Below are positions 2,846 through 52,389 of a stretch of DNA of 64,000 nucleotides, piece by piece; the first letter of the stretch is position 1, and every line of letters starts with the position of its first letter. Under the pieces are notes generated by a model. That model was not told the DNA's origin and ran no database searches. It saw nothing but the letters and a program-made list of their open reading frames with translations. Source of the stretch: a virus; the IMG/VR virus record IMGVR_UViG_3300043438_001221. The stretch is one strand, 5' to 3'. A program made the translations under genes and the position numbers.

Positions 2846-5071
2846 TTAAGCAAGCGCATAGGCGGATGATCCATAGTCCCCGCGATTGGAATTCATTGAT
2901 ATGGGAGATGATTTCTGACCGGGAGTGGGGGATGAAATCGGTATAACGGTGTTCCTATTACTTCCCCCCATACTAGAATCCATTTTTTTCAGGATTTGTG
3001 CTGCAATGCCCTTGATATCGCCCATGATCTTGATCTGCGTCATACCGATATTATGAAGGAATTCCAAGGATTGTTGATTACCAGATTGCACAACAGGCAA
3101 TGTGTTTGGATTTGGTGTATTGGATACTTCCGGTTTGGGTGATTTGACCGTTTTGATAGCATCTGATACCACAGCATTTTTATTTTTACCCCAATTGGAT
3201 TTTTCATATTCCTCGACGGTTTTCCAACCCATCGCTTTGGCTCTTCTCTCCATTTCTTCGGGAGACACCCAATCGCCTTGTTTCCAGCCAGATTTTTCAT
3301 ATGCTTTATAATCGGGATGACCCATTTTGTTGGCTGCTGCAATTTTCTCCTGATCTGTTAGCTCCCTAGATTTCTGATTCTCCGCTGGTTTGGCGGGTGT
3401 TTCCTTATCAGAAGACCAAAGACTCTTGATCCACCCCACAACACCACCAACAAAATCATCCAAGAATTTACCAATCTTATCAATCGCTGGTTTGAAAATA
3501 TTGGAAAGGGATTGGAAAAATTTACCAAAATTTTCAATCATTCCCTTGTAGAGCTTCATTCCCAACTCAACACTCTTGAAGAAATTTTTAACCATATTCT
3601 TCCAAAGAGCAGAGGTTTTACTCCTATACCATTCAAAGCCCTTAGAGAAGCTTTGGGACGCAGATTTCCAAAGAGCAGAGGTTTTACTCCTATACCATTC
3701 AAAGCCCTTAGAGAAGCTTTGGGACGCAGATTTCCAAGTCTTACTGGAGAACTCTTTCATTTTATCATATCCATCTCCCATGCTTTTGGAAAAACCACTT
3801 ACAGAATCTCCATCACCATCATCCAGAATACCAAACCATTCCAGAGGCTTTCTGAGAGCATATGGCAAATCTTTCAACTTCTTCTTGATCCATGCTTTCA
3901 GACCAGAGAACCATCCCGTTTTCGGAGATAAAGATTTATCGGATTCTTTCTTTTCTCCAAATCCTAACAGCATTTCAATACCCGTAACAATCGAACCAAG
4001 ACCGCCAAATGATAACATGGATGCACCAAATTGATAAAGACCCCCCATGATGTCCCCGCTTTTAAAAGCGTTCCAAGACATTTCCATTCTCTTAAATCCA
4101 CCTATAACGGGAATCCATAAGGCATTTTTCCATACCCACTTACCAATTCCTTTAGCCATGTCTCCCAGCAAGTCCATCTTAGCACTATTTTTATTCTTGG
4201 CACCCGCTGTCTTGATATCAATAAAAGCATTAAGAACGTCCAAACCTATAGATAGTGTTGTGCCAAGTCCGGGGGCAACCAAATCAAGCAATCCTGCCAA
4301 CCCGCTCAACACATCAATTACCCCACCAACGGTATCTCCGCTACTGAAGCGGGAAATCGCAAAACCGAAAGAAATAATTGCCCCGATTAAAGGAATTCTT
4401 TTTAAAACCAACAACATCGGTTTTAAAAATTTAAATATTTTAACCATAAAACCACCACCTTTGGCCATACCACCAAGAGCCTTAAAGGGTGCGCCCAACA
4501 TTCCTTTCAGAGATGTTATAAACCCTTTGATACCGTTAGTAATTATATTACCTATGAAATTTTTAGGAATTAACCCTTTAAATAATTTATTATTAATATT
4601 GAATAATAATTTTAGTCTCGATTTGGTCATTTGTAATAATGCCCTAAAAGTCAATTTCAACATACCCTTGAATGGGCTATCTGTCATTAATCCACCAATC
4701 AATGCTGCAATTGCTCCGACTAACGGCCATATAATCTTCCATAATAAAGATTTTGCTTCCGCTTTCCCATCTTTTTGCTGCATTTTCTCCCCTGTTTTAC
4801 CCGTGACTTTTTGAATGGAAGTCTTGATCGCCTTATCAGGAGTCTTTTTCTTCTGATATTCAAAGAATGTCTTGGCGAAGAGGGAGGCGATTTCCGTAGT
4901 TCTCTTGCGCTCATTGCTATTAAGCGTGGGAGTCACCCTTTTATTGGGATCGGAGGGATTATTACCCTGCAATACGTTCTTGTCCTCTATGGATTCCCCC
5001 TGCGGAACGCCAATGGTTTCATTGAGCGTTTTCAACAATCCTAATAAGTCTTCTAACAAAGCGACATTCAC
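2846..5071 (-). CDS. tape-measure-like / tail length protein (gp29-like)
   Basis: 741 aa; Gly/hydrophobic helical blocks (LKRIPLIGAIISFGFA..GD..GG), periodic Trp/Phe repeats, tail cluster. Confidence 0.65.
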   Translation of the reverse strand: MNVALLEDLLGLLKTLNETIGVPQGESIEDKNVLQGNNPSDPNKRVTPTLNSNERKRTTEIASLFAKTFFEYQKKKTPDKAIKTSIQKVTGKTGEKMQQKDGKAEAKSLLWKIIWPLVGAIAALIGGLMTDSPFKGMLKLTFRALLQMTKSRLKLLFNINNKLFKGLIPKNFIGNIITNGIKGFITSLKGMLGAPFKALGGMAKGGGFMVKIFKFLKPMLLVLKRIPLIGAIISFGFAISRFSSGDTVGGVIDVLSGLAGLLDLVAPGLGTTLSIGLDVLNAFIDIKTAGAKNKNSAKMDLLGDMAKGIGKWVWKNALWIPVIGGFKRMEMSWNAFKSGDIMGGLYQFGASMLSFGGLGSIVTGIEMLLGFGEKKESDKSLSPKTGWFSGLKAWIKKKLKDLPYALRKPLEWFGILDDGDGDSVSGFSKSMGDGYDKMKEFSSKTWKSASQSFSKGFEWYRSKTSALWKSASQSFSKGFEWYRSKTSALWKNMVKNFFKSVELGMKLYKGMIENFGKFFQSLSNIFKPAIDKIGKFLDDFVGGVVGWIKSLWSSDKETPAKPAENQKSRELTDQEKIAAANKMGHPDYKAYEKSGWKQGDWVSPEEMERRAKAMGWKTVEEYEKSNWGKNKNAVVSDAIKTVKSPKPEVSNTPNPNTLPVVQSGNQQSLEFLHNIGMTQIKIMGDIKGIAAQILKKMDSSMGGSNRNTVIPISSPTPGQKSSPISMNSNRGDYGSSAYALA
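3600..3737. repeat. perfect 66-bp tandem duplication (22 aa WKSASQSFSKGFEWYRSKTSAL x2)
   Basis: Identical copies start at 3600 and 3666. Confidence 0.95.
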
Positions 5072-5090
5072 TTTATTATTTAATCAGGTA

Positions 5091-5177
5091 ACACAACACG
5101 GCGCATCACATAACGCCTACCATCCGTGTAATTAATTCACAAGTCCATCGTGGCGTATGTGTGCTTTGACGTTCGGC
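5091..5177 (+). other. attC: integron attC-like recombination site
   Basis: AAC(5095-97) + 5-nt spacer + GCAtCACATAaCGCC ... GGCGTATGTGTGC + 6-nt spacer + GTTCGGC; 13 paired bases with two extrahelical bases. Confidence 0.75.
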
Positions 5178-5216
5178 AGAAATTGATTATCCCAAGCGAA
5201 ACAACAAACAAAGCGC

Positions 5217-5435
5217 ATGACCAAAGAAACCATGTCAATATATTACAGTGCCAATTCAAAAAGTGGTAAGTGTCCTGTATGTGAGAGCGAATCTTATCAT
5301 TCCCTTGGACAATCATCGTTTCCCATTGTTGCAGAACAAGGAGAGAAGCGTGATTTGAAGGTTTATCAGATTGCGTGTGGGGGATGTGGTCTTGTCATGT
5401 CCTTCTCTTCCTTGGTCGTTGACGGGACTGAGTAA
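5217..5435 (+). CDS. small Zn-finger protein, cassette-like
   Basis: CPVC...CGGC; starts 40 nt after the attC GTTCGGC core. Confidence 0.6.
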   Translation: MTKETMSIYYSANSKSGKCPVCESESYHSLGQSSFPIVAEQGEKRDLKVYQIACGGCGLVMSFSSLVVDGTE

Positions 5436-5504
5436 GTGTTCACCCCACCCCAAACAATTTTTATGCCCAAAATTTTCCTTTCGATATTTTTCTTCCGCTG
5501 TCAT
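5313..5504 (-). pseudogene. possible truncated late gene (MTAEEKYRKENFGHK...) running into the antisense of the cassette ORF
   Basis: TAAATA(5510-15)-5nt-ATG at 5504. Confidence 0.35.
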
Positions 5505-5525
5505 ACCATTATTTAGTCCAACAAC

Positions 5526-5726
5526 ATGAATAACCAAGAAATTACAGACTATCGTTTACTCTACGCAAGAGAAGATCAAATCACTGAAGAGGTGATAAGA
5601 TTTATCAATGCCAAGAAAGGATGGCAACCGTATGGTAGCCCTTTCAAGATGGGGACGGTTGATGATGACAAGTATGCTGATGTGATCCATACACTCATAG
5701 GACAGGCAATGGTCAAATACAAGTGA
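5526..5726 (+). CDS. DUF1737-like small protein
   Basis: GWQPYGSPF...GQAMVK motif. Confidence 0.65.
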   Translation: MNNQEITDYRLLYAREDQITEEVIRFINAKKGWQPYGSPFKMGTVDDDKYADVIHTLIGQAMVKYK

Positions 5727-5733
5727 TTAACAT

Positions 5734-5937
5734 ATGAATATCAGACTAATCTCACCAGAGAATAAATCAATCCCAATCACTTGTATCCGATTTGAGAATG
5801 AAGAAGGTGGTTATATTGATACAACGGGTGATTCAATAAGAGTGAATACCGTATATGGAGTTCCGTTCTTGAATATCAAGATCAAGACGACAAGACAAAG
5901 CGGATCACTTTTCGATTTTTGTCTCTCCAAAGACTAA
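5734..5937 (+). CDS. hypothetical protein
   Basis: Follows previous ORF after 7 nt. Confidence 0.45.
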   Translation: MNIRLISPENKSIPITCIRFENEEGGYIDTTGDSIRVNTVYGVPFLNIKIKTTRQSGSLFDFCLSKD

Positions 5938-6222
5938 AACTGAATGAGATAGGGTTCCGTATTTCAAATCCGAACGAACCAATACAATTTCACAAAAATC
6001 GTGTGCCATTTGACGGAATTCGGGATCAGCGTTTGCCCTTTCACGATGTTCGGGACTTGCGAATTTATACATCAGCTTGAAGAGTAGTTCCCTATCAACA
6101 TCCCACTGATCCAATGAAGAAGGCGAACAAGCCGTCACATCCAAGCCCTCTCCGGCTTCCAGACGAGGTTCGGCTTGTTCTTGAGGGCTGGATGGACTAT
6201 TACGTTGTGTAGAATTATTCAT
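5905..6222 (-). CDS. hypothetical protein whose N-terminus reads through an attC-like half-site (GLDVTACSPSS)
   Basis: TTGACA-16nt-TAAATA upstream of the ATG at 6222. Confidence 0.55.
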   Translation of the reverse strand: MNNSTQRNSPSSPQEQAEPRLEAGEGLDVTACSPSSLDQWDVDRELLFKLMYKFASPEHRERANADPEFRQMAHDFCEIVLVRSDLKYGTLSHSVLVFGETKIEK

Positions 6223-6254
6223 AGGATCAATATTTACCACAGATTTTCAGGATG

Positions 6255-6989
6255 TCAATTATCAAAGAAACTCACATCAATATCAAACGCCTTTTCTTCC
6301 CCATTGATCGTAACTTTCAAATGGGATTGTTCATCCTCCTTAAACGCTTCAATATATTTGATGATTTCCTTGTTGATCGATAGAGGCAGATTTTCCACAA
6401 TTTTCACACGATCCTTCACCGGAGTATCACCAAAGACAATCTCATTCTCTCCGAATTTCACGGATTTGATGAATTTTACGATCTCAAATGTGTAAATATT
6501 ACCGATATTCTTACCAGCATCCTTGTCCCCATCCTTTTTGAGAATTTCAATGGCATAATTGATGATCTTGTTCTCTTCCTTGAGAGTTGGGGTAGTCAGA
6601 ACCACATCCACCGCACCATTGATCGTCTTTTCCTTGGGAGATTTGATCTTACGGGAGCTTTCCACGTTATTTTCAATATTTCCCACTTCCCCATCCAGCT
6701 TCAGATCATATCCAAGGCTTTCTCCCCGAATTCTGAGAATCAGGGGCAACTTATCCTCAACTTTAAGGGTATCCGATTCGGTATTTTCAATAAGAATATC
6801 ATTTAGGATTTTCTGGAACTTGAGAACACCCACAGTTCCATCTGCTACCGTGGCGATAATATCTTTCTGTTGTTTGAACGTGAGGGGGGAGCAATCCACT
6901 TCCTTTTTGGTAGAAGCTTGGTATGCCTTGAATTTCTTTGCCTTGAGTTCCTGAATGCTGTCGAGGAATTGTTGAACGTTGTTTTCCAT
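6255..6989 (-). CDS. gp26: baseplate hub subunit, gp26-like
   Basis: PLTFKQQKDII...D..LILRIRGESLG and terminal DVSFF typical of T4 gp26 family. Confidence 0.7.
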   Translation of the reverse strand: MENNVQQFLDSIQELKAKKFKAYQASTKKEVDCSPLTFKQQKDIIATVADGTVGVLKFQKILNDILIENTESDTLKVEDKLPLILRIRGESLGYDLKLDGEVGNIENNVESSRKIKSPKEKTINGAVDVVLTTPTLKEENKIINYAIEILKKDGDKDAGKNIGNIYTFEIVKFIKSVKFGENEIVFGDTPVKDRVKIVENLPLSINKEIIKYIEAFKEDEQSHLKVTINGEEKAFDIDVSFFDN

Positions 6990-45624: not shown

Positions 45625-46788
45625 ATGTTGAAGGCAATTAAAATCAGACTCTATCCAACTCAAGAACAGGAGAATTACATCTCCCAATTATTGGGTTCCT
45701 GTAGGTTTGTCTATAATAATTGTTTGGCATTGAAAATTAAAAATTATAACGACGATAAGAAATCAACATCTTTTAAAGAGCTTGGTAAGCATCTTACGGG
45801 CTTGAAAAGCCAAGAGGAAACAATATGGTTAAAGGATGTTCATTCCAAAGTTCTACAACAGTCTCTTATCAATCTGGAAGCTGCATATAAATCATTTTTC
45901 AAAAATGGCGCAGGATTTCCAAAATTTAAATCCAAGAGAAATAAACAATCTTGTAGGTTTCCAGTGGACGCAATTGGAAAAATAAATGGTAATAGAATCA
46001 ACATTATAAAACCTCTAAGAAATATTCATTTCAAATGCTCCAAACGAGACGAAACACATCTTAATAATTTTCAAGATGATATAAAATCAGCAACATTATC
46101 CAAAAATGGGTATGGTCAATATTATTTCAGTGTTCTGGTTGAGATACCAATTCAAAAGGAATTACCATTGTCTAATAAATCGATTGGCTTGGATGTTGGT
46201 ATCAAGACTTTTATCGTTGATTCCAATGGACATGAGTGGGAAAATATCAAGATAAAAAGAAACAATCAAAAGAAACTTGCCAGACTCCACAGACGGCATT
46301 CTAAAAAATTAAAAGGGTCTAAGAACAAAGAGAAATCAAGAATCAAATTAGCAAAATACCATGATAAATTATCAAACATAAAAAACCATTATCTTCATCA
46401 GGTGTCCAATAAGATTATAGAGGAAAACCAACTCATAATCATTGAAGACTTGAACGTTTCAGGAATGATGAAGAACCATAAATTGGCAAAGTCGATCCAA
46501 GAATTATCTATTTTCAGATTCAAAGAAATCCTTACTTACAAATGTAATTGGTATGGAAGGGATTTGATACAGATAGATAGATTCTTTCCAAGTTCTAAAT
46601 TATGTGGGAATTGTGGTTATAAAAATGACAACTTAACCTTAAAAGATAGAACTTGGAAATGTGGGGAGTGTAATACGATCCACTCAAGGGATTTAAATGC
46701 CGCTAAAAACATCCTCAAGGAAGGATTAAGAATTTCAAATATAGGGCTGAGTTCGCCCGAATTTACGCTTCAGGAGATTTGTCAATAG
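45625..46788 (+). mobile_element. tnpB: RNA-guided endonuclease TnpB (IS200/IS605/IS607-type; no transposase in window)
   Basis: N-terminal HTH (KIRLYPT..Q), GFPKFK, RuvC GLDVG / IEDL / RDLNAA, CxxC..CxxC. Confidence 0.93.
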
Positions 46789-50804: not shown

Positions 50805-51036
50805 CGTAAATTCCCCTTTCCACCATTTTAGAATATTCCGAAGAATCACAGGGATAGCTATTGAAACAATGATCCCATAACCAAGGCTCCTGTTCTTCCG
50901 ATGGGTTGATTTCCACAATCAGCTTATCATATAGATCATTCTGTTGTTGTTGAAGCTGTTCAATAGCCGCTCGTGTTCCTTCAATCTTGCTCCGATGCTT
51001 TTCCATACCATCTATCGTATTTTGCTCTGTATTCAT
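50794..51036 (-). CDS. hypothetical protein
   Basis: Coupled ORF. Confidence 0.5.
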   Translation of the reverse strand: MNTEQNTIDGMEKHRSKIEGTRAAIEQLQQQQNDLYDKLIVEINPSEEQEPWLWDHCFNSYPCDSSEYSKMVERGIYGEL

Positions 51037-51667
51037 TTATTTTTTCCTTAATTTCTTCCAAATCGGTGCAATAATCCTCCATCTCAGGTATGATATAATA
51101 CCGTTGCGTAACTTCTTGAATAAAGTCAATCAGCTTTTGTTCAGGTGTTGGTCTTTCCGACCGATTCTTCCGCATATTGTCATCCATTTCCTTCCGGCTC
51201 TGTTTAACTTCTTTCAAATAAGCTTCCAATTCCTCGTCCGTTCTCTTGTAAGGAATATCGTGTTTCTCCAATGAGATATCAACAAATTCCCCACCCAAAA
51301 ATCCAACGACCCACTCAATACACCCACAGATAAACCTATGAGCTTCCGGTGTTCCACACTTCACATCATTATCTTCGGGGTGTCGATATGTTTCGTAAAT
51401 ACCGACAACTCCGGTGAAATCATGGGGTTCCCACCATTCCCTTTCAACCACAAATTCCATACCAAAGAATGGAATATTTTGATTTTCCACATAATGTCCT
51501 TCTTCTCTGAAGATTTCCAGCTTCTCTTCAGAATTCACCCTGAAATTCAGCATCAGATTTTCTCCCAAATCCTTGGTTTGAAATATCAGATTCTTCCGAT
51601 CAATCTCTGGTGGAAGATCGGGCAGATCGATGCTCTCGTCTATTGTTAAGCTGTTATACATTCCCAT
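50981..51667 (-). CDS. conserved phage protein (MGMY...FQTKDL family)
   Basis: MGMYN, FQTKDL, FTG motifs; headed by the 18-bp element. Confidence 0.65.
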   Translation of the reverse strand: MGMYNSLTIDESIDLPDLPPEIDRKNLIFQTKDLGENLMLNFRVNSEEKLEIFREEGHYVENQNIPFFGMEFVVEREWWEPHDFTGVVGIYETYRHPEDNDVKCGTPEAHRFICGCIEWVVGFLGGEFVDISLEKHDIPYKRTDEELEAYLKEVKQSRKEMDDNMRKNRSERPTPEQKLIDFIQEVTQRYYIIPEMEDYCTDLEEIKEKINEYRAKYDRWYGKASEQD

Positions 51668-51673
51668 ATTTTT

Positions 51674-51691
51674 ATTATATTCTAGTTTTTA
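51674..51691 (-). promoter_or_regulatory. TAAAAACTAGAnTAYAAT element, copy 5 (contains clamp stop codon)
   Basis: TAAAAACTAGAATATAAT, 6 nt before ATG. Confidence 0.8.
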
Positions 51692-52389
51692 AGACTCGAT
51701 AGGATGTATTCCATCTCAAAATCCCCACTTTTAGTGATGATGCAGCCGACTCCAAGCTTGGAATTGATCTTGAAAATGTTTCCGGTCTTGGATACCTTGG
51801 ACAACAGCTTGAGATTGTCGATCTTCAGAATGAACGATTCCAATTCAAAATCCACTTCATCTCCCACGATGCTCAGAGTATCACTGTTGGGAACAGTCTC
51901 ATCCCCCAGCTTCCACACCAGAGAATCATTCTCCGTGAAGAGATAGAGCTTGTTGGTGTTTGTAATGGATGATTTCTGAAGAACATTGGAAAGAAACTCG
52001 AAATCCAGATCAAATTGGAGATTGTATTCAAAATTACGAATTTTTTCCAGAGACAGCTTCGGTTTGGTGATCACCCCATCCTCATGGAGATGATATTTGA
52101 ACTTCAGGGTCTTGTCCTTATATTCCAGATGATTATTGTTCAGCTTGAGCTTGATATCATCGGAGGAAACCATATCCAAAGCTTTCCAAAGCTTCTTCAA
52201 AGACGGTAGATTGAGATTCTGCTCCTCATACTCTCCTGACAGGTAAGCATGGGCAAACATGGAATTGTCCTCACTGGAGGCAATCCCATGAATACCATCT
52301 TCCCTCAGTTCCAGAACACAAGTGTCATGGATTTGACCGAGGCTTTGGAGTAAGAACTGGAACTCTTTCTTTTTCAGGTTTAGCTGCAT
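51682..52389 (-). CDS. gp45: sliding clamp
   Basis: 235 aa, clamp-like two-domain pattern, K.DNLKLL, terminal EYI; replication cluster. Confidence 0.75.
   Translation of the reverse strand: MQLNLKKKEFQFLLQSLGQIHDTCVLELREDGIHGIASSEDNSMFAHAYLSGEYEEQNLNLPSLKKLWKALDMVSSDDIKLKLNNNHLEYKDKTLKFKYHLHEDGVITKPKLSLEKIRNFEYNLQFDLDFEFLSNVLQKSSITNTNKLYLFTENDSLVWKLGDETVPNSDTLSIVGDEVDFELESFILKIDNLKLLSKVSKTGNIFKINSKLGVGCIITKSGDFEMEYILSSLKN

Follow-up and report, generated by a model that had tools for sequence, protein, structure and literature searches.

Two attC sites and a probable integron-type cassette between late tail genes of an uncultured T4-like phage lineage

A variable block between two intact tail genes

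The DNA analysed here, referred to as the window, is a stretch of 64,000 nucleotides from the IMG/VR virus record IMGVR_UViG_3300043438_001221. The window contains T4-like core genes, namely gp32, the clamp loader, sheath, gp25, Gp10_C and a T4-type terminase. The Pfam tally of its 86 ORFs further includes two GIY-YIG endonucleases, an MT-A70 methyltransferase and two Mtd_N proteins, and the window also encodes an RmlA/RmlD-type sugar pathway and glycosyltransferases. Searches against GenBank phages gave no match by DNA or by the hub protein, and a 16-mer scan of viral contigs yielded mostly chance matches. Relatives were found through the tape-measure-like tail gene, which is shared at 50–81% identity with 18 related loci and viral contigs (designated with L numbers where they need to be told apart).

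We focused on the region between this tape-measure-like gene and a baseplate-hub-like gene, both of which are encoded on the minus strand (Table 1). The hub gene directly abuts the tape-measure gene in eight of the related loci (L009–L015 and L017), where the block between them is absent. This means that positions 5087–6250 of the window are an insertion. Both flanking tail genes are intact, with protein matches to relatives that span all or nearly all of their length. In the closest relative (L001, which is the same locus as L020), the hairpin region at the left end of the insertion and the adjoining 45-nt leader are kept up to the ATG, where other genes follow downstream. The other end of the insertion, with the hairpin site at 6122–6210, is conserved as well. 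At the same junction, other relatives carry unrelated insertions without any attC site (L004/L007, L005/L018 and L016), so that the junction between the hub and tape-measure genes is a general insertion hotspot.

An earlier description of the window, made from its letters alone (the sequence-only reading), had placed an integron attC site at 5091–5177, followed by a zinc-finger ORF antisense to the tail operon, and had proposed that this ORF cuts off a phage late gene starting at 5504. The ORF is present as described, as a CxxC...CxxC reading frame on the plus strand facing minus-strand tail genes. The truncated late gene does not hold: the minus-strand ORF at 5313–5504 is contained entirely in the inserted cassette and runs antisense to ORF72. 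As this ORF is internal to the cassette and the flanking tail genes are full length, no late gene has been truncated. The single database homologue of the 5313–5504 ORF belongs to a further copy of this cassette.

Table 1. Features at the insertion and its flanks, with positions in the window.
Feature	Position	Strand	Size	Remarks
Tape-measure-like tail gene	2846..5071	-	741 aa	Intact left neighbour; PHROGs tape-measure families
Late-promoter-like leader of the tape-measure gene, TAAATA-N5-GTG	5072-5086	-		Kept; also in insertion-free relatives
Left attC site, L-type hairpin	5091..5177	+	87 bp	Read as the resident docking site
Integron-type cassette	5172..6204	+	1033 nt	Starts at TT of the left R', ends at G of the right R'
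Conserved cassette leader	5172..5216	+	45 nt	Reaches the ATG of ORF72
ORF72, small zinc-ribbon protein	5217..5435	+	72 aa	CxxC...CxxC; weak Zn-ribbon Pfam matches
ORF66	5526..5726	+		Weakly DUF1737-like (Pfam E 0.004)
ORF67	5734..5937	+		Conserved in L074
Minus-strand ORF	5905..6222	-	105 aa from ATG 6222	Full-length homologues 55-86% identical
Right attC site, R-type hairpin	6122..6210	+	89 bp	The cassette's own site
Tail of the inserted block	6211..6254	-	44 nt	Promoter-like element and ATG 6222
Baseplate-hub-like gene	6255..6989	-	244 aa	Intact right neighbour; Pfam T4_baseplate, PHROG baseplate hub

Both ends of the insertion have attC geometry

An attC site is defined by AAC as the sole conserved triplet, an unpaired spacer of 5–6 nt on each arm, two or three extrahelical bases that in the top strand lie on the arm with the AAC and whose first and last members are separated by a 6-bp stem, a T on the bottom strand as the distal extrahelical base, and a length of 57–141 bp with a variable terminal structure (PMC5027507). 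The left site begins with the R'' box ACACAAC (5091–5097, with AAC at 5095–5097), a 5-nt spacer (5098–5102) and a 5' arm of 15 nt (5103–5117). This arm forms 13 bp with the 13-nt 3' arm (5152–5164) and leaves T5106 and A5113 bulged, which gives a stem of 3 bp, bulged T, 6 bp, bulged A and 4 bp around a loop of 34 nt (5118–5151). A second spacer of 6 nt (5165–5170) leads to the R' box GTTCGGC (5171–5177, with GTT at 5171–5173). The sequence-only reading of this hairpin was right in every coordinate, spacer and bulge and in its total of 87 bp.

That reading contained no mention of a partner, which we found on the same strand at 6122–6210. The right site has a sequence unrelated to that of the left site but follows an identical plan. 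The R'' box GGCGAAC (with AAC at 6126–6128) and a 5-nt spacer precede a looped stem of 3 bp, bulged A, 6 bp, bulged A and 6 bp, from which a 6-nt spacer leads to the R' box GTTGTGT (with GTT at 6204–6206). Both sites thus have the AAC/GTT triplets, spacers of 5 and 6 nt, bulges at arm positions 4 and 11, and lengths (87 and 89 bp) of an attC site. In each of the six phage and five bacterial hairpin cores that we compared, the distal bulge is a top-strand A, which reads T on the bottom strand. The proximal bulge of the window sites is a T or an A on the top strand and not the usual bottom-strand G (C on top). The loops are wholly different between hairpin types, and also between L034 and the other L-type sites.

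The R boxes of the two sites are complementary across the cassette. The right R' (GTTGTGT) is the exact complement of the left R'' (ACACAAC), and the left R' (GTTCGGC) complements the right R'', which reads GCCGAAC in relatives and GGCGAAC in the window. This complementarity is kept in every intact copy. Such swapped R boxes match the product expected when a circular cassette is inserted at the G|TT of a resident site with ACACAAC...GTTGTGT. From the TT of its R' onward, the sequence of the left site is that of the inserted cassette. The left site is therefore a hybrid, whose own R'' and R' match at only 4/7 positions. The L hairpin accordingly runs into GTTGTGT in L036/L038 and into GTTCGGC in L019–L022. 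The start of the cassette (TTCGGC) pairs with its own R'' (GGCGAAC) at 6/7 positions in the window and with GCCGAAC at 7/7 positions in L020, L022, L021, L074 and a metagenome-assembled genome (MAG) of Spartobacteria. In L019, the predicted start of the next site (GCCGAAC) was confirmed; this second site had been missed by our geometry scanner because its R' has lost the GTT. Measured against the consensus RYYYAAC/GTTRRRY, ACACAAC, GTTCGGC and GTTGTGT each have one mismatch and GGCGAAC has two. Similar departures from the consensus (e.g., CTCGAAC and GTTCGCT) are seen in the host lineage at sites next to true IntI genes.

Geometry and covariation support the sites

We searched the window for AAC, 4–6 nt, 3 bp, a bulge, 6 bp, a bulge, 4 bp, a loop, the returning arm, 4–7 nt and GTT, allowing no mismatch. 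The window has two exact matches (5091–5177 and 6122–6210), each on the plus strand, and 200 Markov shuffles searched on both strands had none. Hairpins with the same bulge geometry that lack the AAC/GTT anchors occur three times on the minus strand of the window, where about 0.3 per strand are expected by chance. The folding energy of the site is no better than that of shuffled sequences (z = 0.1–0.7). As the long loop dominates the folding energy, stability is not a discriminating feature. A search of Rfam gave noise only and no match for the site. With folding and Rfam being uninformative, the case rests on geometry and on comparison.

To obtain a model that is independent of the phage sequences, we trained a covariance model only on 12 bacterial attC sites, eight beside true intI genes and four from a canonical array. 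The model detects 5091–5177 at 31.1 bits and 6122–6209 at 31.8 bits (E about 1e-6), and no other match was found in the 64 kb up to E = 10. It also matches many sites in the related phage loci and nothing in the four related loci devoid of attC sites. A covariance-model check thus picks out exactly the two window sites, here with our own model built from bacterial sites.

The six distinct phage hairpin cores retain the geometry while 8/13 pairs have changed on both sides, and their second bulge is always an A. Covariation was counted by script, as a MAFFT alignment of all phage sites placed the 3' arms wrongly; the sites counted had been pre-selected for perfect pairing, except for the L-variants, which co-vary at a pair outside the search pattern. 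That stems co-vary while geometry is conserved implies selection on the fold.

Cassette genes and their putative expression signals

The cassette begins with a leader that is shared by cassettes of different cargo in L019–L022. A word-based homology search with ORF72 recovered only ORF72 itself, and an exhaustive search identified two homologues, P0033 (59% identity, E 2e-20) and P0034 (44%, E 4e-10). These two sole homologues are both single-gene cassettes in canonical attC arrays, one of which has at least 10 homogeneous sites of 127 nt that are very similar to one of the phage hairpin types. ORF66 has a related ORF of 57 aa in the L021 cassette. Compared with L074, ORF66 has five nucleotide differences, all at third codon positions and without amino-acid changes, and ORF67 has 19 nucleotide differences, 12 of them at third positions, with seven amino-acid changes. 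PADLOC, Pfam, PHROGs and the ESM Atlas assigned no function to the cargo.

The 105-aa minus-strand ORF has its ATG beyond the cassette boundary and enters the cassette by way of the bottom strand of the right attC site. Some 20 database proteins match only its attC-encoded N-terminus (about 35–45 aa) and have unrelated C-termini. The tail of the inserted block contains a sigma-70-like promoter, with TTGACA at 6258–6253, a gap of 18 nt and AATATT at 6234–6229 (promoter scan, 10/12 matches). A promoter and ATG that read into the attC site on the minus strand in this way are seen in the window, L074, L022 and L038, and homologous tails follow attC sites in L074. On the left side, the flanks in L021 (345–385), L002 and L022 (8116–8148, minus strand) contain an outward promoter-like site, TTGACA...TAAAT, that faces the displaced downstream tail gene.

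Cassettes are gained, lost, exchanged and relocated among related phages

A comparison of the locus in related phages for cassette turnover had been proposed as a check. A cassette-free form exists: L036/L038 share the left flank and the L hairpin of L022, and there the hairpin is joined straight to GTTGTGT and the right flank. The L'-hairpin is followed by four unrelated continuations right after the GTT (in L021, the Spartobacteria MAG, L074 and L050). The window block 5208–6258 reappears at 93.8% identity at another junction, beside glycosyltransferase and helicase genes. There, the relocated cassette is docked behind a different hairpin in a four-site array. Units of the same design are also found at the junction between the hub gene and a 233-aa gene (L021 and L002), between homologues of window genes 50981–51667 and 51682–52389 (L022 and L051), and near gp32 (L071). 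Cassettes are thus present, absent, exchanged and relocated within this lineage, with the break at G|TT. Taken together, structure, an independent model of bacterial sites and this comparative turnover support the reading of these sites as integron attC sites.

Not all features of the blocks follow from crossover at this point. Homology between copies at different junctions extends 48 nt past R'. As the leader is also conserved across different cargo, exchanges other than the G|TT crossover have shaped the blocks as well. Flanks of the blocks contain repeated phage regulatory motifs, such as a direct repeat around the block in L019. In some relatives, the GTT is mutated to ATT or CTT (both sites in L051, and the right site in L036, L038 and L039), which may lock a cassette in place.

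A 177-kb relative contains an island of 53–60% GC in a genome of about 40% GC (L048 10000–11500, corresponding to 170.0–171.5 kb of G001). Within it lie two co-oriented attC sites that score 52 and 39.5 bits with the bacterial model. From its composition and sites, this island looks like a separate capture of foreign cassettes.

Related arrays in Spartobacteria point to a probable host

We searched one genome each of 185,579 prokaryote species for the pattern of the L-type hairpin. A single genome matched, a MAG from Spartobacteria (Verrucomicrobiota, PVC). The match lies on a 282-kb contig of 55% GC, in an island of 47% GC with at least four co-oriented attC sites, three of which were identified by script or by eye and one more by the covariance model. 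The leader of the MAG cassette is 91% identical to that of L021 and 84% identical to window positions 5168–5215, and this cassette ends in an attC site that is 93% identical to the L021 site, loop included. The island (L061 2800–8300, C1 42.8–48.3 kb) encodes a 460-aa STAND/NB-ARC NTPase, an HNH/LprI protein, and an M23 peptidase. The NTPase and the HNH/LprI protein are defence-like cargo.

IntI was not found in the MAG, which has only Xer-like recombinases; its nearest tyrosine recombinase is without the IntI insertion. Among 41 relatives of the MAG, 14 encode an IntI that scores above the curated cut-off and has the IntI-specific insertion. Directly beside three of these intI genes (G003, G008 and G034), we found co-oriented attC arrays of the same geometry. 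The suggestion from the window sequence that the phage had captured part of a host integron array is strengthened by the near-identical attC site and leader of the MAG and by how common IntI is among its relatives. Likewise, what had been offered as a tentative hint at a PVC host gains support from the MAG array. The host is probably a Spartobacteria-like verrucomicrobium whose arrays have the same family of attC sites and leaders, as judged from these sequence matches.

No integrase was found in the phages

No Phage_integrase is among the Pfam families listed for the window ORFs. A search with PF00589 found nothing in the 177-kb relative, which is 87% complete, and tblastn searches, with one Xer and three IntI proteins as queries, yielded noise only. 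Thus, the window, the 177-kb relative and the other phage loci all failed to yield a tyrosine recombinase.

A complete integron has intI with attI and Pc beside the cassettes, and the window lacks this arrangement. Its two co-oriented sites are separated by 945 nt (from 5177 to 6122), and its 64 kb yielded no integrase. These are the characteristics of a CALIN, a cluster of at least two neighbouring attC sites lacking an integrase. We take this spacing to be within the distance threshold for a CALIN. As no tyrosine recombinase was found, the structure is classified as a CALIN and not as a complete integron, and the recombination that formed it would have been catalysed by an IntI supplied from elsewhere. 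Both this catalysis at the window sites and the direction of transfer between phage and bacterium are what we infer from sequence.

The window does contain a solo TnpB gene (45625–46788, plus strand) with OrfB_IS605, Cas12f-like TNB and HTH domains, 39 kb from the sites. Elements of the IS200/IS605 (PATE) class have subterminal hairpins with no AAC/GTT core and depend on a Y1 (HUH) transposase encoded in the genome. The sites differ from this class: there is no Y1_Tnp among the listed Pfam matches, and the hairpins have attC geometry and partner-swapped R boxes.

A docked cassette as the probable reading, and the alternatives

The reading that we favour, with a probability of about 0.8, is that window positions 5087–6250 consist of a resident attC site, one integron-type cassette with its own attC site, and a 44-nt tail, and that recombination of the attC x attC type, presumably by the IntI of the host, placed the cassette at the resident site. 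In this model, the bottom strand of each site would fold into a hairpin with an unpaired spacer of 5–6 nt and two extrahelical bases that are six base pairs apart. The hairpins would act as structure-specific recombination sites of the IntI kind, with strand exchange at the G|TT of R'. Recombination of the incoming cassette with the resident site would have left hybrid R boxes, ACACAAC...GTTCGGC on the left and GGCGAAC...GTTGTGT on the right. As no integrase was found in the phage, the enzyme would come from its host, as the IntI of what is probably a Spartobacteria-like verrucomicrobium.

The alternative that deserves most attention, although we consider it unlikely, is that the attC sites are relics. 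Illegitimate or homologous recombination would then have brought in the block, either from another phage or from the integron DNA of a bacterium, IntI would not recombine the sites in the phage, and the turnover would be ordinary phage recombination at shared leaders and tails. The leader after the GTT and the 48-nt tail after R' are indeed conserved across junctions and cargo, the flanks have repeated phage regulatory motifs such as the direct repeat around the L019 block, the GTT is mutated in L051 and L036/L038/L039, and the same junction accepts unrelated insertions that lack attC sites (L004/L007, L005/L018 and L016). However, recombination at leaders and tails would have to produce a cassette-free form at the same junction that breaks exactly at the GTT, and four different continuations after the GTT of one hairpin type. 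The relic reading is also at odds with R boxes that remain complementary from one end of the cassette to the other in all intact copies, and with stems that co-vary around a conserved geometry and thereby imply selection on the fold.

A different hairpin-dependent mobile system, either an IS200/IS605-type PATE with a Y1 transposase or a cassette system that uses a Xer-like recombinase, could be suspected from the TnpB (OrfB_IS605) gene in the window and from the failure to find IntI in the phage. We regard this as very improbable, because the Pfam matches listed for the window ORFs include no Y1 transposase, and because neither the window nor the 177-kb relative yielded a tyrosine recombinase of any kind. 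In addition, the geometry is the one seen in the host lineage next to bona fide IntI genes, and the phage sites are found by a model trained on bacterial attC sites. Least credible of all, to the point of being negligible, is a chance inverted repeat or a regulatory hairpin or promoter element of a divergent intergenic region. The left site does lie upstream of a plus-strand ORF in a divergent intergenic gap, its folding energy does not exceed that of shuffles, and Rfam has no match for it, but chance or regulation would leave unaccounted for a geometry seen in none of 200 shuffles, a second site of unrelated sequence with identical geometry, the covariance-model matches to both, and sites that are conserved and co-varying across many contigs and present in bacterial arrays.

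If the docked-cassette reading is correct, a further step can be proposed tentatively, and we hold it to be rather less likely than not to survive in full. The phage lineage may keep single attC docking sites in the intergenic gaps of its late operons and use the host IntI to capture genes during lytic infection, with sites adapted for expression and a two-way cassette trade with the verrucomicrobial host. In that case, the leader would drive genes on the top strand, and the promoter and ATG outside the cassette would express promoterless bottom-strand genes as fusions to an attC-encoded N-terminus. This would amount to an integron platform without integrase or attI that belongs to a virulent phage.

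Integron cassettes are usually regarded as a property of bacteria. The loci described here reveal natural variation within one uncultured phage lineage, in which cassettes are present, absent, exchanged or relocated at the attC crossover point. They point to a route of gene flow in which cassettes would pass between virulent phages and the integrons of bacteria, and they allow a probable host, Spartobacteria in the Verrucomicrobiota, to be proposed from sequence for T4-like contigs of about 120–210 kb without a match among GenBank phages. The small cargo genes may act in phage–host conflict. In addition, the loci supply concrete sites and cassettes for recombination assays.

Comparison with known systems

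The window shares with CALINs and their attC sites the layout R''-L''-loop-L'-R', the AAC/GTT triplets, a spacer of 5–6 nt, bulges 6 bp apart and a length of 87–89 bp. It also shares a cassette start complementary to the cassette's own R'', the break at G|TT, and an integrase-less pair of sites about 1 kb apart. Unlike the usual CALIN, it is located between late tail genes of a T4-like phage. The sites differ from usual attC sites in R boxes that are off consensus at one or two positions and in a proximal bulge that is T or A instead of G. The cassette differs from a usual integron cassette in that it has several genes, with ORFs on both strands, and travels with a leader and a promoter-bearing tail.

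The arrays of Verrucomicrobiota have the same site geometry as the phage sites and similar 5' halves (AAC, AAGxC, then GC(A/T)(T/C)CAT..CAAC). As in the phage, the R' of one site is complementary to the R'' of the next, and homologues of ORF72 occur as cassette cargo. However, the bacterial arrays are long, co-oriented and mostly composed of single-gene cassettes, whereas the phage sites form isolated two-site units in which no intI was found.

Stem-loops around variable small genes are also familiar from T4-type phages. Arbiol, Comeau and Krisch are said to have described in 2010 the PeSLs, mobile regulatory cassettes of T4-type phages that combine a short conserved stem-loop with promoter modules. 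PeSLs reportedly flank variable small ORFs and mediate modular shuffling in T4-type genomes. The window block resembles them in having stem-loop and promoter modules around variable small ORFs. Its sites differ from PeSLs in that each type has one copy in the 64 kb, in their attC geometry, and in their occurrence in bacterial integron arrays. We rejected a PeSL-like repeated promoter cassette, as a sequence-only model found single copies in the window and as the second site has the same geometry in an unrelated sequence.

The closest precedent is the integrase-less attC clusters of virulent phages, which are already known and include those of a metagenomic myovirus with several ORFs between its sites (Qi et al. 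2023, PMC9892861). In that study, IntI1 recombined 5/6 of the phage attC sites that were tested (Qi et al. 2023, PMC9892861). Compared with those phages, the present lineage has no match among GenBank phages, its relatives display gain, loss and relocation of cassettes at G|TT, and a bacterial array contains its cassette family, so that a candidate host can be named. What these comparisons appear to add is the natural turnover and relocation of cassettes within a phage lineage, a cassette family shared with a bacterial array, and a probable host.
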